From a virus, in the IMG/VR virus record IMGVR_UViG_3300029418_000119: 64,000 nt of DNA; one strand, 5' to 3'. The notes under the pieces are model-generated. The model was not told the origin of the DNA. It did not search any database and saw only the letters and a list, made by a program, of their open reading frames with translations. A program made the position numbers and the translations under genes. Of this stretch, positions 11,616 through 24,835 are shown one piece after another. Position 1 is the stretch's first letter. Each line of letters starts with the position of its first letter.

Positions 11616-11700
11616 GGGGATATGGTGAAATTGGCAGCCACGCTTGATTCAAACTCAAGTGTCGAAAGACGTATCGGTTCAAATCCGATTATCCCTACCA
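11616..11700 (+). tRNA. tRNA-Leu (anticodon CAA), CCA encoded
   Basis: Acceptor GGGGATA/TATCCCT, anticodon loop TTCAAAC, long variable arm, T-loop TTCAAAT. Confidence 0.75.
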
Positions 11701-11900
11701 TGAAGATCAGTTGTTCTAGCTCGTTCGGGGATTGGCCGTACATTGGCGACCGGAAAGACGTCATACCGGTAAAGGACGTCAAGCCAGACAAGAAGAGAAA
11801 TAAGGTGTAAGCCGACTAGCTATCGGATAAATACTCTTCGGTTCGCCAGAAAACTAGAATGTAAAACGAATGGTTGGCTGTTTCTGATCTTCTTTTATAT

Positions 11901-11983
11901 GCGCCCGTGGTGGAATCGCAGACACAGGAGACTTAAGATCTTCTGCCAGAGATGGCGTGCGGGTTCAAGTCCCGCCGGGCGCA
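11901..11983 (+). tRNA. tRNA-Leu (anticodon TAA)
   Basis: Acceptor GCGCCCG/CGGGCGC, anticodon loop CTTAAGA, long variable arm, T-loop TTCAAGT. Confidence 0.75.
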
Positions 11984-11990
11984 TTTATAT

Positions 11991-12066
11991 CTGGGCGTAG
12001 CGAAGTTGGCATCGCACCTGTTTTGGGAACAGGGGACCGCAAGTTCAAATCTTGTCGCTCAGACCA
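11991..12066 (+). tRNA. tRNA-Pro (anticodon TGG), CCA encoded
   Basis: Acceptor CTGGGCG/CGCTCAG (one GU), anticodon loop TTTGGGA, T-loop TTCAAAT. Confidence 0.75.
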
Positions 12067-12070
12067 ATTC

Positions 12071-12130
12071 CTATTATTCCCAGCTCCTTAGCAGTAAGGC
12101 AGTAGGATGCTTCTCCAGTAAGCTGGGTAT
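12071..12130 (+). repeat. about 57-nt hairpin element, copy 1 (CTATTATTCCCAGCTC ... CAGTAG ... GTAAGCTGGGT)
   Basis: Shares conserved ends and a central CAGTAG with a copy at 12337-12392; stem CCCAGCT/AGCTGGG. Confidence 0.4.
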
Positions 12131-12134
12131 ATGA

Positions 12135-12205
12135 TGCGCCATCGCCAAGCGGTAAGGCAGAGGACTTTGACTCCTCCATCACAGGTTCGACCCCTGTTGG
12201 CGCAA
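12135..12205 (+). tRNA. tRNA-Gln (anticodon TTG)
   Basis: Acceptor TGCGCCA/TGGCGCA, anticodon loop CTTTGAC, T-loop TTCGACC. Confidence 0.7.
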
Positions 12206-12210
12206 TTTAT

Positions 12211-12292
<82 letters not shown>

Positions 12293-12336
12293 CGGTCATG
12301 AATCGTTGTTGTTCATGGTTGAACTCCTTTGACCAC

Positions 12337-12392
12337 TATTATTCCCAGCTCGCCAGTGATGGTGCAGTAGTGCTTTGTAAGCTGGGTTTTCA
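12337..12392 (+). repeat. about 57-nt hairpin element, copy 2
   Basis: CTATTATTCCCAGCTC...CAGTAG...GTAAGCTGGGT; see copy 1. Confidence 0.4.
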
Positions 12393-12393
12393 T

Positions 12394-12468
12394 GCAGCGG
12401 TCGTACAACGGCTAGTACATCAGCCTTCCAAGCTGAGGATGAGGTTTCGACTACCTTTCGCTGCTCCA
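12394..12468 (+). tRNA. tRNA-Gly (anticodon TCC), CCA encoded
   Basis: Acceptor GCAGCGG/TCGCTGC, discriminator U, anticodon loop CTTCCAA, T-loop TTCGACT. Confidence 0.65.
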
Positions 12469-12649
12469 ATCTTGTATGGGTAGGATCTTTAGCGGTCAGA
12501 TCCGGCCGCGCCTGTGCAAGATACCACCCAGAAAGGGGCTAACGAAATTATCCATGTACGTTATTCTCGGCTCGCTCGAAAGAGTGCAGCGTGCCTTTGC
12601 AAGCCGAGCATCCCAGCCTAGTGATGCCAGTTGCTAGGTTGGTTCTTAT

Positions 12650-12725
12650 GCGACTGTAGTTCAATTGGCAGAGCGTCAGATTTCCAATCTGAATGTTGCG
12701 GGATCGTCCCCCGTCAGTCGCTCCA
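12650..12725 (+). tRNA. tRNA-Gly (anticodon TCC), second copy, CCA encoded
   Basis: Acceptor GCGACTG/CAGTCGC, discriminator U, anticodon loop TTTCCAA, T-loop ATCGTCC. Confidence 0.6.
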
Positions 12726-12952
12726 CACGCAGCCCCTTACGCTGCACCGGTTACTCAGAGCCGAAAGGAACCTATATGTTACGACATGGTTGCCAAGAGT
12801 GATCATATTGGAACGCGACGTAGCTTGGATAGTGAGAATTAAATTCTGAGGTATACGGCTGGATAGCTTAATGGTAAAAGCGCTCGGAAACACCGAGAGA
12901 TGAGGTTCGATTCCTCCGCTGGCATCGCGCCGACGAAAGTCGGCGTTTGCAT

Positions 12953-13029
12953 GGGATAGTAGCTCAGTTGGTCAGAGCTGGCGGCTCATAACCGCTTGGT
13001 CGGGAGTTCGAATCTCTCCTGTCCCACCA
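12953..13029 (+). tRNA. tRNA-Met or Ile2 (anticodon CAT), CCA encoded
   Basis: Acceptor GGGATAG/CTGTCCC, G1-C72 (elongator type), anticodon loop CTCATAA, T-loop TTCGAAT. Confidence 0.75.
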
Positions 13030-19281: not shown

Positions 19282-19295
19282 AAAGAGGTTGGTAA

Positions 19296-19712
19296 ATGGA
19301 TAATACAGTTCATGACGCTCAAAGATTGAAGGAGCTTCAAGCACTTCCTCTTGAGCGAAAGATTCAGATCACTCAAAATCGCATCCAAGAATGGTATATG
19401 CACTACGACGGTGGCGTGTATGTCAGTTTTTCTGGTGGTAAGGATTCTACTGTACTTGCTCATCTGACGAAACAGCTGTTTCCAGATGTTCCGCTTGTGT
19501 TCAGTAACACGGGGTTGGAATACTCGTCTATCCAGAAGTTTGCACGAGATGCGGATGCGGTTTTTGTTTATCCCAAGATGGGATTTAGTGATGTTGTCTC
19601 TACATATGGTTATCCTCTTATCTCTAAAGAAGTGGCAGAAGCGATTTATTACGCTAGACGAATCAGAAATAGCGGCGCAGCCACCATGAGAGAGAGAGAG
19701 AGAGAGAGTTAA
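19296..19712 (+). CDS. PAPS-reductase-like PP-loop protein, N-terminal part (ends inside the (GA)10 repeat)
   Basis: PP-loop VSFSGGKDS; ORF terminates right after the GA repeat. Confidence 0.65.
   Translation: MDNTVHDAQRLKELQALPLERKIQITQNRIQEWYMHYDGGVYVSFSGGKDSTVLAHLTKQLFPDVPLVFSNTGLEYSSIQKFARDADAVFVYPKMGFSDVVSTYGYPLISKEVAEAIYYARRIRNSGAATMRERERES
19688..19708 (+). repeat. (GA)10 dinucleotide repeat
   Basis: gagagagagagagagagagag seen directly in the sequence. Confidence 0.95.
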
Positions 19713-19753
19713 GAACAACTCTCAGGAAAAGACAGGAACTTCTGGGTTTAAGG

Positions 19754-20518
19754 ATGAACAGTCCGGGAGGTGTCTTTAGCAACCCGTGGCTTTATGATAA
19801 AACAGGAGTATTTCAGGGAAATAGACGAACGATTCTACTTGGAAATGAACCGGGAGCTGAAATGCAAGCTGGAACGAAATCGATGTTCAACAAAGAGAAA
19901 TGGCTTCCAGCGACACAAGAACTTCCATTCGCAATTTCTCATTACTGTTGCTCAGTAATGAAGAAAAGTCCAATGAAGAAGTACGCAAGGGCAACTAAGC
20001 GGAAACCAATTATTGGAACTTTGACAGATGAAAGCCGTGTTCGCAAACAGGCGTGGATTCGACATGGGTGTAATGCCTTTGATAGCAAGTCGCCGTCTAG
20101 TCAGCCTATGAGTTTTTGGACTGAGCAAGATGTACTCGCTTTCATCAAACAGTCAGGAATTCAAATCGCTGATGTTTATGGCGATATCGTTCCCACGAGT
20201 GATAAGCCAGAAGCTCCACTGTGTTGTACTGGATGTGATCGCACCGGATGCACATTCTGCGGATTTGGAGCTCACAACAAAAATGATAACAGATTCTTGA
20301 CGCTTGCCGAACTTGATCCTAAGAAGTACGAGTACAGTATGAATGGTGGTCAGTGGGTGGATAACCCTGCGTATGATGCGATAGCACCTGAATACGACGG
20401 TGTATGGAAGAATTGGAACCCGAAGAAAATTTGGGTGCCCAGTAAGGAAGGTCTTGGCCTGAGAAAAGTTTTTGATATGTTCAATGAACTGTATCCAAAC
20501 AACAAAATTCAGTATTAA
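19754..20518 (+). CDS. PAPS-reductase-like protein, C-terminal part (its frame is open back through the GA repeat to 19673)
   Basis: GTLTDESRVRKQ and SFWTEQDVLAFIKQ resemble the C-terminal half of the PAPS reductase family; CCxxxKKxP and a CTGCDRTGCTFCGF cysteine cluster. Confidence 0.6.
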   Translation: MNSPGGVFSNPWLYDKTGVFQGNRRTILLGNEPGAEMQAGTKSMFNKEKWLPATQELPFAISHYCCSVMKKSPMKKYARATKRKPIIGTLTDESRVRKQAWIRHGCNAFDSKSPSSQPMSFWTEQDVLAFIKQSGIQIADVYGDIVPTSDKPEAPLCCTGCDRTGCTFCGFGAHNKNDNRFLTLAELDPKKYEYSMNGGQWVDNPAYDAIAPEYDGVWKNWNPKKIWVPSKEGLGLRKVFDMFNELYPNNKIQY

Positions 20519-23096: not shown

Positions 23097-24835
23097 ATGT
23101 AAAACTCTGGAAGGGGAGTAGGAACGACCTATCAGACCCGATTGGAACGATTATGGAGAACAGAGGGGTTGAGGATTATAAGACCTACATGAACCTAGAT
23201 GATTCTTGTCTGAATTCTCCGTGGGAACTGGACAACATGGAAGATGCTGTCCGGCTGTTGAACAAACATATCTGGAATAAGTCTATTATCTCTATCCTTG
23301 TAGACTGTGATGTGGATGGATTCACAAGTGCTTCAATGATGTTTCAGTATTTGAAGACGATTGGTTATTTTGGAAAAATCAATGTTCTGCATCATAGTGG
23401 CAAAGAACACGGACTCTCTAAAGAAATTGAAGTTCCACCTGAAACTACCTTGCTGATTATTCCTGATGCTGGCAGCAATGATGTTGAGCAGTGTAAGGAA
23501 CTTCGTGATAATGGCATCGATATTCTGATTCTTGACCATCACATCTGCGACAGAGAGAATCCTTACGCAGTAATCGTCAATAACCAGAATGGTACATATC
23601 CTAATAAGGAATTGTCTGGCGCTGGCGTGGTGTATAAGTTCCTTCAGGCTGTTGATGAATATAATTGGACTGATGTTGCAGACAGGTATCTTGATCTAGT
23701 GGCCGTCGGAAATATCGGTGACGTCATGGATATGCACTCACACGAGACAAAGCGCCTTTGCACGAAAGGTCTTGCGAGAATTGTGAATCCAATGATTTGC
23801 GCTCTGGTTGAAGCGAATAGCTTCAATATTAAGGGTGACCCGACTATCAATGATGTTCAGTTCTACATCGTTCCGATGATGAATGCACTGATTCGTGTTG
23901 GTTCATCCGAGCAGAAGAAGCGGATGTTCCGTGCAATGGTCGGTGAGGAACAGACATTCCAGTACACTCCGACTCGTGGCAAGAATGCCGGTGTCACGAT
24001 TGACGAGACTCTGGCACAGCATGTAGCTCGTGAGTGTTCGTCTTGCAAGTATCAGCAAAACAAGACCAAAGACAAGGCTGTCGCAGAGCTTCAAAACTGG
24101 ATTTCTAAGTATGGAGCGGACAGAAGTAAAGTTTTGTTTTGTAATTCCACTGGCATTCTGGACAGTAATTTGACTGGCGTTGTAGCAATCAAGTTGGCTG
24201 AAATGTATGGTAAACCTTGCGTACTACTTCGAGAGATGGCCTGCCCTGAAGAGCCAGACGAGAATCAAGAGTATTTTGGTGGTTCAATGAGAAATCCTGA
24301 CGGTTCTCCGATTGAAAGTTTAAAAGAGTTTTTGATGAGCACCGGAGATTTTGAGTCGGTTCTTGGTCACGATAATGCCGCTGGCGTAAAAATCAAGAAA
24401 AAAAACGTACCAAAGGCGATTGCGGATTGCAATGAACTGCTTAAAGATGTCACGATGAGTAAGGCGATCGTGGTCGATTTTGATTTTGACTATAGTAAGT
24501 TGACTGTTGCATTGCCGAAGACCATGTATGAAATGCATAAAATCTGGGCACAGGGAATCTCCGAACCGTATTTCTACATTAAAAACATTCCGCTGATTCA
24601 TAGTGGATGTGCTCCGATGGGCAAGAATGGTAATATGTGGAAATATTCTGATGAAGAAAAAGGCATTGATTTTGTGTGCTTTGCTGATAATGGCCGGATG
24701 ATTGGCTGGATCAACAATGACTTTTATGGTGATCAGGAAGAAAAATACATCAATGCTGTATGCCGGTTATCTTTAAATCAGTACGGGAACAAAGTAACTC
24801 CGCAGGCGCAGATTGTTGATTTTGAGGTGATTTGA
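23093..24835 (+). CDS. DHH-family phosphoesterase, RecJ-like ssDNA exonuclease
   Basis: DHH motifs VDCDVDGFTSA, IPDAGS, LILDHH. Confidence 0.6.
   Translation: MNVKLWKGSRNDLSDPIGTIMENRGVEDYKTYMNLDDSCLNSPWELDNMEDAVRLLNKHIWNKSIISILVDCDVDGFTSASMMFQYLKTIGYFGKINVLHHSGKEHGLSKEIEVPPETTLLIIPDAGSNDVEQCKELRDNGIDILILDHHICDRENPYAVIVNNQNGTYPNKELSGAGVVYKFLQAVDEYNWTDVADRYLDLVAVGNIGDVMDMHSHETKRLCTKGLARIVNPMICALVEANSFNIKGDPTINDVQFYIVPMMNALIRVGSSEQKKRMFRAMVGEEQTFQYTPTRGKNAGVTIDETLAQHVARECSSCKYQQNKTKDKAVAELQNWISKYGADRSKVLFCNSTGILDSNLTGVVAIKLAEMYGKPCVLLREMACPEEPDENQEYFGGSMRNPDGSPIESLKEFLMSTGDFESVLGHDNAAGVKIKKKNVPKAIADCNELLKDVTMSKAIVVDFDFDYSKLTVALPKTMYEMHKIWAQGISEPYFYIKNIPLIHSGCAPMGKNGNMWKYSDEEKGIDFVCFADNGRMIGWINNDFYGDQEEKYINAVCRLSLNQYGNKVTPQAQIVDFEVI

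Follow-up and report, generated by a model that had tools for sequence, protein, structure and literature searches.

We analyzed a 64,000-nt stretch of virus DNA, IMG/VR record IMGVR_UViG_3300029418_000119 (the window, meaning that stretch at its full length), in which a gene for a PAPS-reductase-like protein at positions 19296–20518 is divided into two reading frames by a run of GA dinucleotides. The (GA)n tract is probably a hypermutable simple sequence repeat (SSR) contingency locus inside a single phage gene, which would toggle the encoded enzyme between a full-length (ON) and a truncated (OFF) form. The parts of this reading do not stand equally firm. We are highly confident that the tract is a hypermutable frame-switching SSR in one real gene, we lean toward a selectively maintained switch rather than a tolerated mutational hot spot, and we put forward a role of the enzyme in DNA modification only tentatively, as a proposal that may well prove wrong.

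Results

A (GA)10 tract separates the two halves of the gene

Direct reading of the sequence gives (GA)10G at 19688–19708, followed by TT and then AAGAAC. In the frame of the upstream open reading frame (ORF), GCC ACC ATG AGA GAG AGA GAG AGA GAG AGT TAA GAA, the tract encodes (Arg-Glu)n and runs into a TAA stop codon at 19710–19712. This upstream ORF (ORF1, 19296–19712, plus strand, as are all features of the gene given below) has a Shine-Dalgarno-like GAGG (19285–19288) 7 nt 5' of its ATG and encodes the N-terminal half of the protein as a 138-residue OFF product ending in TMRERERES. The frame encoding the second half of the enzyme (19673–20518, stop codon at 20516–20518) is open across the repeat. 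ORF callers begin an ‘ORF2’ (19754–20518, 254 residues) at the ATG at 19754–19756, and the listed ORF2 is merely the portion of the C-terminal frame past its first ATG. Removal of one GA unit (2 nt) gives a computed fused product of 406 residues, and gain of two units (4 nt) one of 408 residues. The original prediction had described the tract, the ORF1 stop codon and the open second frame, and had stated that loss of one unit or gain of two would fuse the halves; both the description and the arithmetic were correct. The window carries an OFF allele (n=10 units with a TT junction) that is one unit from ON.

The junction and its stop codon (19709–19712) contain an extra T particular to the lineage of the window allele, reading GAG-TT-AAGAAC in that lineage versus GAG-T-AAGAAC (or shorter) in all relatives outside it. 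Owing to this T, the in-frame unit numbers are 6, 9 and 12 here versus 5, 8, 11 and 14 in most relatives.

Tandem Repeats Finder assigned the tract a period of 2, 10.5 copies and 100% matches. It is the sole dinucleotide run of at least five units in the window, where the sole mononucleotide run of at least eight is an A8 at 24398. (GA)7 occurred in none of 100 dinucleotide-preserving shuffles, and hence the tract is far longer than expected by chance. Codon preference does not explain the pure AGA-GAG run, since AGA is a minor arginine codon of the phage (53 of 367 Arg codons). The window encodes eight tRNA genes at 11616–13029 (three Leu, two Gly, and one each of Pro, Gln and Met), together with a ninth, weak Rfam tRNA match at 12858–12924; the cluster lacks a tRNA-Arg(UCU) that would read the AGA codons found in the tract. 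Immediately 5' of the tract, at 19669–19687, is a short imperfect inverted repeat, ATAGCGGC-GCA-GCCACCAT, which was flagged solely as a minus-strand terminator-like site. A hairpin at this position might influence slippage.

Unit number varies among near-identical phage genomes

We compared 49 alleles: the window, 10 loci found via proteins, and 38 found via an exact flanking-DNA pattern in IMG/VR and the ENA/JGI metagenomes. The 38-allele set is independent of reading frame and unbiased. All 49 alleles were from human-gut phage contigs, mostly of 120–140 kb. The tract was uninterrupted in every allele (49/49), with n = 4, 5, 7, 8, 9, 10, 11, 12, 13, 14 or 15. The junction following it was mostly G+T, but the window lineage has G+TT, another lineage has none and a single contig has just T. 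ON alleles encode proteins of 398–407 residues, whereas OFF alleles encode an N-terminal fragment of 136–162 residues that lacks the DESR motif and the Cys cluster described below. In-frame alleles and both out-of-frame classes coexist among the relatives, and in the pattern-based set 12 of the 38 alleles were in frame (95% confidence interval 0.18–0.49).

Repeat number changes faster than point substitution among close relatives. Unit number differed in 16 of 35 pairs having identical 345-nt flanks, and six of 11 multi-member haplotype groups contained more than one tract allele, four of them both ON and OFF. L015 (n=9, ON) and L047 (n=10, OFF) have no differences in 2,425 bp, L002 (n=7) and L005 (n=9) have three in 5,180 bp, and L026 (n=12) and L046 (n=8, ON) have 12 in 6,968 bp. 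The groups with n=4 and n=5 were monomorphic and most groups with n≥7 were polymorphic, a length dependence that is as expected for slippage. Fixation of the tract at (GA)10 would have spoken against the original prediction of a phase-variation switch. Instead, close relatives have 4–15 units, with ON and OFF states on near-identical backgrounds. The switch reading is supported by these comparisons, in which unit changes toggle full-length and truncated products between assemblies.

Dinucleotide repeats are subject to polymerase chain reaction stutter and the window is a single assembly, and so it might be argued that the gene is truly in frame and that (GA)10 was miscounted in sequencing or assembly. 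However, the identical n=10+TT allele is present in four other independent contigs (L016, L025, L040 and L041), and the exact 138- and 254-residue products of the window are found on 27 and 44 public contigs, respectively. Other alleles also recur across samples: the n=4 allele was reproducible in three, and the 137-residue N-terminal fragment of the n=9 OFF allele is indexed in 379 blocks of a public collection. Moreover, both the reads and the assembly k-mers are longer than the tract (21 nt). Since the same alleles recur in independent assemblies, random sequencing error is ruled out, and we consider an artefact extremely improbable.

Although the window and L016, L025, L040 and L041 have identical 345-nt flanks, their outer flanks are 1–6% diverged. 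This suggests that the gene segment has spread by recombination between diverged phage genomes. Some cluster members have longest contigs of 250–470 kb versus the usual genome of 120–140 kb. In one of these, L050 (ERZ28576188 scaffold_2, 468,450 bp), the phage locus lies at 213–217 kb. The oversized scaffolds could be concatemers, mis-scaffolds, or products of integration into or linkage to host DNA, and might reveal the host.

Both halves of the gene are maintained in ON and OFF alleles

Outside the junction, the N half (390 nt) was intact in 44 of 45 readable alleles, and the C frame had no interruption before its stop codon in any of the 43 alleles whose gene end was located. The sole allele of the 49 having a second lesion was L037 (OLSO01010984.1), in which a 13-nt deletion (GTTGTCTCTACAT) in the N half accompanies n=10. 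This deletion may reflect true decay or may be an error, the contig being 2.1 kb long and of low coverage. The ratios of nonsynonymous to synonymous substitution (dN/dS, pairwise Nei-Gojobori medians) were 0.022 for the N half and 0.046 for the C half, and 0.022 and 0.045 when OFF alleles alone were considered. A control in which the same DNA was read in the wrong frame gave a dN/dS of ~2. Both halves are therefore held under strong purifying selection, and pseudogene decay was rejected on the basis of dN/dS and the lack of other lesions.

One allele has regained the full-length frame by other means. In L049/P0004 an out-of-frame (GA)4 is accompanied by a 1-nt deletion 33 nt downstream (AGAACTTCTGG converted to AGAATTCTGG) that restores a 400-residue ORF in which 10–11 codons are read in another frame. 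This second-site suppressor indicates that the full-length product is selected for. Which unit numbers are in frame is also reset by the TT and ‘no GT’ junction variants.

The coexistence of strong purifying selection on both halves with about two-thirds out-of-frame alleles would also be explained by slippage during expression. RNA polymerase would realign by 2 nt, or ribosomes would shift by +2 or −2 with perfect AGA/GAG re-pairing, as a period-2 tract should permit, such that a certain amount of full-length protein would be made from every allele, largely irrespective of the genomic frame. We consider this very unlikely. There is no X XXY YYZ slippery heptamer and no stimulatory RNA structure downstream (fold z = +0.88), and since in-frame alleles exist together with both out-of-frame classes, no single programmed shift fits; a programmed ribosomal frameshift gene was rejected for these reasons. 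In addition, the (GA)4 OFF allele gained a compensating frameshift in the DNA, indicating that the DNA frame matters there. Note that transcriptional slippage during elongation is an established phenomenon on A/T homopolymers but not on dinucleotide tracts.

The two halves form a single protein

The fused protein matched PF01507 with a score of 58.7 bits (gathering cut-off 22.5) and matched PHROG 424 across residues 13–358. In tblastn searches 26 phage records covered at least 80% of the fused query, the best one in a single alignment piece, and identity was at most 41%. When the locus was compared by Megablast with 50,697 GenBank phage records, nothing matched, and thus there is no cultured close relative in that set. 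Full-length relatives in a large protein database having 98%, 89%, 87% and 84% identity are 403, 406, 401 and 400 residues long, respectively, and database proteins consisting only of the C-terminal part were traced to other split alleles.

ORF callers and public annotations show two ORFs, which would be expected if the enzyme were naturally composed of two subunits or if the gene were a dead or decaying pseudogene. In contrast, the homologs are single chains that span both halves, rather than the two separate proteins that would have counted against the original prediction, and the conserved core fold extends over both halves. Separate expression of the second half was also rejected. The ORF2 ATG (19754) is not conserved, being ACG in L001, the closest in-frame relative. 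The sequence AAGGA abuts this ATG without a spacer, and hence there is no properly spaced ribosome-binding site; a promoter search found no promoter-like site between the two halves. Given the purifying selection and the lack of other lesions, decay is excluded, and we regard the chance of a two-subunit enzyme or a pseudogene as negligible.

The protein has a PAPS-reductase fold with a variable insert

The gene encodes one enzyme of ~400 residues having the PAPS-reductase fold, a PP-loop and a Cys cluster. The PP-loop SFSGGKDS (19425–19448), the ATP pyrophosphatase signature, has residues S46–T52 invariant in 78 homologs, and residues 42–85 are the best PF01507 stretch. The second half contains HYCC (19940–19951), with the invariant pair C214/C215 as putative Fe-S ligands, and TLTDESRVRKQ (20018–20050), a conserved PAPS-reductase core motif with E242 and R246 invariant. 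It also contains the Cys cluster CCTGCDRTGCTFC (20222–20260), the CxxC part of a CC...CxxC Fe-S-type motif, in which C307, C315 and C318 are invariant and C310 is nearly so; the original prediction had correctly placed a Cys cluster in this half. The DESR motif, the invariant CC pair and the CxxC cluster are all coded downstream of the tract and are removed by a frameshift there. The CC...CxxC cysteine pattern resembles that of APS reductases.

An AlphaFold2 model of P0001, a 403-residue relative, was made with a 78-sequence alignment (mean predicted local distance difference test score (pLDDT) 85.5, predicted template modeling score 0.81). The core of the model, residues 1–120 and 195–403, is confident, with the flanking core having pLDDT values above 90, whereas residues ~121–194 are of low confidence (block means of pLDDT 42–70). 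This variable insert (19665–19876 in the window) lies between a conserved helix, AEAIYYARRI, and the conserved KSMFNKEKW, and in homologs it is between 46 and 474 nt long. The repeat is at the start of the insert, with the repeat-encoded residues starting at 131, the beginning of a weakly predicted helix. Given this placement in a low-confidence segment of variable length, in-frame changes in (Arg-Glu)n are likely to be tolerated by the protein.

The best Foldseek matches of the model were CysH, APS reductase, CysD and TtuA, with 12–13% identity and template modeling scores of ~0.33 by query length; the top matches, CysH and APS reductase, were at probability 1.00. A sequence profile search weakly matched the same CysH/APS reductase-type proteins. 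Taken together, the searches indicate that the protein is a member of the PAPS reductase superfamily that is not an equivalog of CysH, DndC or IbrA. Membership in the superfamily is indicated by the PF01507 score, the invariant SFSGGKDS and the matching fold. In the case of CysH/APS reductase, the protein scored 25.5 versus 154 bits with PRK02090 and 17.4 versus 235 bits with TIGR02055, all NCBIfam models being far below their cut-offs, and the C-terminal ECG[LI]H catalytic motif is absent. The low identity, the poor superposition and the replication-gene neighbors given below also set it apart from these enzymes, with which it shares PF01507 above threshold and the best Foldseek matches.

PADLOC matches to BrxP, SspD and DndC had low scores (40, 29 and 14 bits) and covered ~35–60 residues solely around the PP-loop (residues 20–86). 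Thus, of the PAPS-reductase/DndC-like assignment made originally, the PAPS-reductase-like part is borne out by fold and domain, whereas the DndC-like part is not, the match being over the PP-loop alone. A Pfam scan at E values up to 0.1 listed only PF01507, DUF7411, Radical_SAM and ATP_bind_3; the suggestion of DUF3440-containing (IbrA-like) homologs was not upheld, DUF3440 being absent from these matches. The phage protein resembles DndC, BrxP and SspD in having a PP-loop ATP-pyrophosphatase domain of the PAPS reductase superfamily, conserved cysteines and a putative association with DNA modification, but the variable insert and the last ~100 residues are features found only in the phage family. 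Such defense-system relatives of the protein act in DNA phosphorothioation.

Different repeats recur at the same site in distant homologs

We mapped 158 distant homolog loci (35–67% identity) from IMG/VR phages and from gut Clostridia metagenome-assembled genomes (MAGs) or prophages. The insert contained 18 SSRs in 16.6 kb versus 71 in 582 kb elsewhere (1.08 versus 0.12 per kb, a ninefold enrichment, binomial p=4e-11). Three of the loci counted are from the clade of the window, and the count also takes in four weak cases, A8 runs located at the boundary of the insert. An SSR is present in the insert of all six loci whose two halves differ in frame.

The repeats are of several types. G9 in L076 (SSR positions 1894 and 2082), G10 in L143 (at 1897) and G8 in L158 (at 1911) each put the halves out of frame exactly at the tract, and L089 is out of frame with (AG)12 (SSR positions 1944, 2080 and 2168). 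L060 with (AG)9 at 1887, L062 with G9 at 838 and L109 with (GACA)19 at 1899, which codes (TDRQ)n, are in frame. In L071, which has (AG)9, the frame change between the halves is located not at the tract but downstream of it, close to a G5 run. The (GACA)n tract varies in length, with 19 units in L217 versus four in L218 and identical compared flanks (60 nt upstream and 40 nt downstream). A scan for length variants of the L143 G10 tract gave no further contigs. As the intermediate relatives P0005–P0007 (67–74% identity) are without any tract, tracts have been gained and lost repeatedly. That non-triplet repeats of different kinds recur at one site points to selection for switchability.

Other features of these homologs were also seen. 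At ~2030–2060 of L071 the same DNA reads ...TGEGGVFSN... in one frame and ...TDWRRGCL... in another, and peptides of both kinds (SPGGVFS and WKDWRRNCL) are present in P0003; hence the insert appears to be evolving through duplication combined with frameshifting. Five separate G8 tracts lie within ~750 nt upstream of the PAPS-reductase homolog of L071 (264, 472, 593, 730 and 1012), suggesting a neighboring gene with multiple polyG tracts. In another clade, G8–G9 is found ~736 nt into the homologous gene (L124:2237, L126:2236, L157:2242 and L177:2236, the last being a Dysosmobacter segnis BX15 contig), and this clade also has C8–C9 ~500 nt upstream of the gene start. L125 has (AT)16 at 1835, ~334 nt into the homolog and just before the insert boundary used, and thus outside the enrichment count.

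A leader plus (AG)n cassette is shared with DNA methyltransferase genes

The (AG)n tracts of L060, L071 and L089 are preceded by an 18-nt leader, TTCACARAMNGTTMAWGT, that encodes the peptide SQTV[QNH]V. A scan of IMG/VR for the leader plus tract gave 16 contigs (L219–L234) with n=6–15 and unrelated flanks. The genes carrying this cassette were 12 DNA methyltransferases and four PAPS-reductase-like genes, the latter being three PAPS-reductase homologs and one smaller gene (phrog_424). Five of the methyltransferases are N6/N4 DNA methyltransferases with the tract right after the DPPY motif (both of the two scanned with Pfam match PF01555). The other seven are of a second DNA methyltransferase family assigned by PHROGs; Pfam gave no match for this second family or for the small PAPS-like protein. 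In the cassette phages, therefore, the same repeat unit sits in genes predicted to encode DNA-modification enzymes and in PAPS-reductase-like genes. This sharing is the main new argument, although an indirect one, that the PAPS-reductase-like genes may act on DNA. The original prediction had linked the family with DNA modification or anti-restriction, a putative role for which the cassette supplies the new support.

Among 114 unselected (AG)≥10 tracts the leader was found only at the known locus plus one near-variant, L271, and searches for the leader without an AG tract gave only chance-level matches in unrelated genes. The window's own short leader plus tract is confined to its gene clade, and hence the window tract itself is not demonstrated to be a portable cassette. 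Examples of cassette positions are L230:5289, L232:998 and L221 (minus strand, 4251). In many cassette genes the longest open frame downstream differs from the leader frame, and the leader contains a small palindrome, ACAGNCTGT.

A maintained switch or a tolerated hot spot

The main rival to a maintained switch is that the tract is a tolerated mutational hot spot, a low-complexity permissive loop in a conditionally dispensable accessory gene, with no selection for switchability. OFF alleles would be mildly deleterious or neutral and would be reverted or replaced by recombination. The location of the tract in a low-confidence insert of highly variable length and the very common and persistent OFF alleles are what such a hot spot would give. 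However, a dN/dS of 0.02–0.05 among OFF alleles together with the near absence of secondary lesions requires that the gene be in use, and all 49 tracts are uninterrupted despite lineage divergence. The second-site suppressors, the recurrence of different non-triplet SSR types at the site in distant clades and the recurrence of the cassette in methyltransferases also count against it. Moreover, a long non-triplet repeat in a coding region carries a frameshift load, and such repeats are usually purged. We therefore view the hot spot as unlikely, although it is the alternative most deserving of attention.

Several points weigh against the maintained switch. The in-frame fraction of 12/38 matches the one-third expected without selection on state, as would result from neutral drift among the three frames. 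Some alleles are stable or have been spread by recombination, such as n=9 (the 379 blocks) and n=10+TT (in genomes diverged by 1–6%). The variation was seen between assemblies, from which we infer the switching rate, the heterogeneity within populations and the reversibility. The convergent location of the repeats could stem from structural permissiveness of the site rather than from selection for switching. Finally, the DNA-modification part of our proposal is weakened in that DndC, BrxP and SspD are matched over the PP-loop alone and in that synteny, considered as a clue to function, is inconsistent in cultured phages and thus uninformative.

Genomic context and host range

In the window the gene is in a replication module, not among sulfur genes. 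The order is a Sak4-like gene, a gene for a 230-residue protein without a PHROG match, this gene, and then genes for a DnaB-like helicase, a primase, a RecJ-like exonuclease, a Pol III alpha-like polymerase, a helicase/exonuclease and a ligase. No DndA, DndD, DndE or BREX partner genes were found near the locus. The homologs of cultured phages are located between the portal and protease genes, after SSB, or after the portal gene. As OFF alleles leave ~800 nt upstream of the helicase gene untranslated, downstream expression could be affected.

An exact-pattern scan of 185,579 species-representative genomes gave no match, and hence no host or prophage was assigned. A family-level scan found distant relatives in gut Clostridia MAGs (Oscillospiraceae, Lachnospiraceae and Ruminococcus).

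Discussion

In the mechanism we favor, the number of units would change by slipped-strand mispairing at (GA)n during phage DNA replication, and each one-unit change would shift the frame such that the ~400-residue enzyme is ON or is truncated and OFF. These changes would be reversible, and a population would hold enzyme-positive and enzyme-negative genomes together, a form of bet-hedging. The enzyme would act on nucleic acid, most likely in DNA modification, and the modification may help against some host defenses while being costly or a liability against others.

SSR contingency loci are well known in bacteria. Examples are the CT tracts of Helicobacter pylori oipA and sabA, the tetranucleotide repeats of Haemophilus influenzae lic1 and lgtC, and the phase-variable Type III mod genes (‘phasevarions’). 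The (GACA)n unit of the distant homolog L109/L217 is also that of H. influenzae lgtC. Like the bacterial loci, the phage locus has a long uninterrupted non-triplet SSR within an ORF, a polymorphic unit number among near-identical genomes, ON/OFF toggling of the frame by unit change and a gene that is otherwise intact. Unlike them, its carrier is a virulent-looking gut phage of ~135 kb, and its target is a cytoplasmic PAPS-reductase-fold enzyme gene within a replication module rather than a surface structure or a restriction-modification gene.

In phages, contingency loci have only just been proposed, with homopolymers in laboratory coliphages and Campylobacter phages. In 2021 Sorensen et al. 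reportedly described polyG tracts in Campylobacter phage receptor-binding genes. A-run contingency loci have been described in T2 and T4 genes including the DNA-glucosylation gene agt (Gomez, Barrick and Waters, bioRxiv 10.1101/2025.10.21.683753). According to the same preprint, the switched DNA-modification enzyme of T2 helps against one restriction system and hurts against another, a logic that we propose may apply here. The preprint scans only homopolymers of at least six bases, and the word ‘dinucleotide’ is absent from it. The T2/T4, Campylobacter phage and window loci all have a hypermutable repeat in a phage ORF, with mixed ON and OFF progeny in the former two. However, those loci are homopolymers of 6–9 or more bases in cultured phages, whereas here the repeat is a dinucleotide with 49 natural metagenome alleles, and other clades of this gene have polyG or tetranucleotide tracts at the same site. 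In the literature searched, neither a phage gene switched by a di- or tetranucleotide repeat nor a phase-variable phage PAPS reductase had been reported earlier. What is new is a dinucleotide switch in natural gut-phage populations, in a family usually annotated as metabolic auxiliary genes; the mechanism itself is classical bacterial SSR phase variation. Contingency loci are textbook material for bacterial pathogens, and the present evidence is from natural populations, dozens of human-gut metagenomes in which a gene under selection is out of frame in about two-thirds of the sampled genomes. As gene callers split such genes in two, their abundance and ‘pseudogene’ status are misjudged in virome catalogs.

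‘PAPS reductase/cysH’ is among the commonest supposed auxiliary metabolic genes in viromes, and published work mostly treats such phage genes as auxiliary to sulfur metabolism. A phase-variable gene that lies among replication genes, fails the CysH tests and has relatives sharing a cassette with methyltransferases is more likely to encode a nucleic acid modification or counter-defense enzyme. A broader possibility, which we consider doubtful at present, is a convergent strategy across the family in which the PAPS-reductase-like genes of many unrelated gut and rumen phages repeatedly gain non-triplet SSRs at one permissive site. With the cassette of one phage group also in N6/N4 and other DNA methyltransferase genes, this would amount to phasevarion-like stochastic switching of a DNA-modification repertoire, possibly via a portable SSR cassette, and the viral ‘cysH/PAPS reductase’ auxiliary metabolic genes would be nucleic-acid-modifying enzymes of the phage–host arms race. 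If confirmed, the family-wide recurrence and the shared cassette could make this locus more than another such switch.

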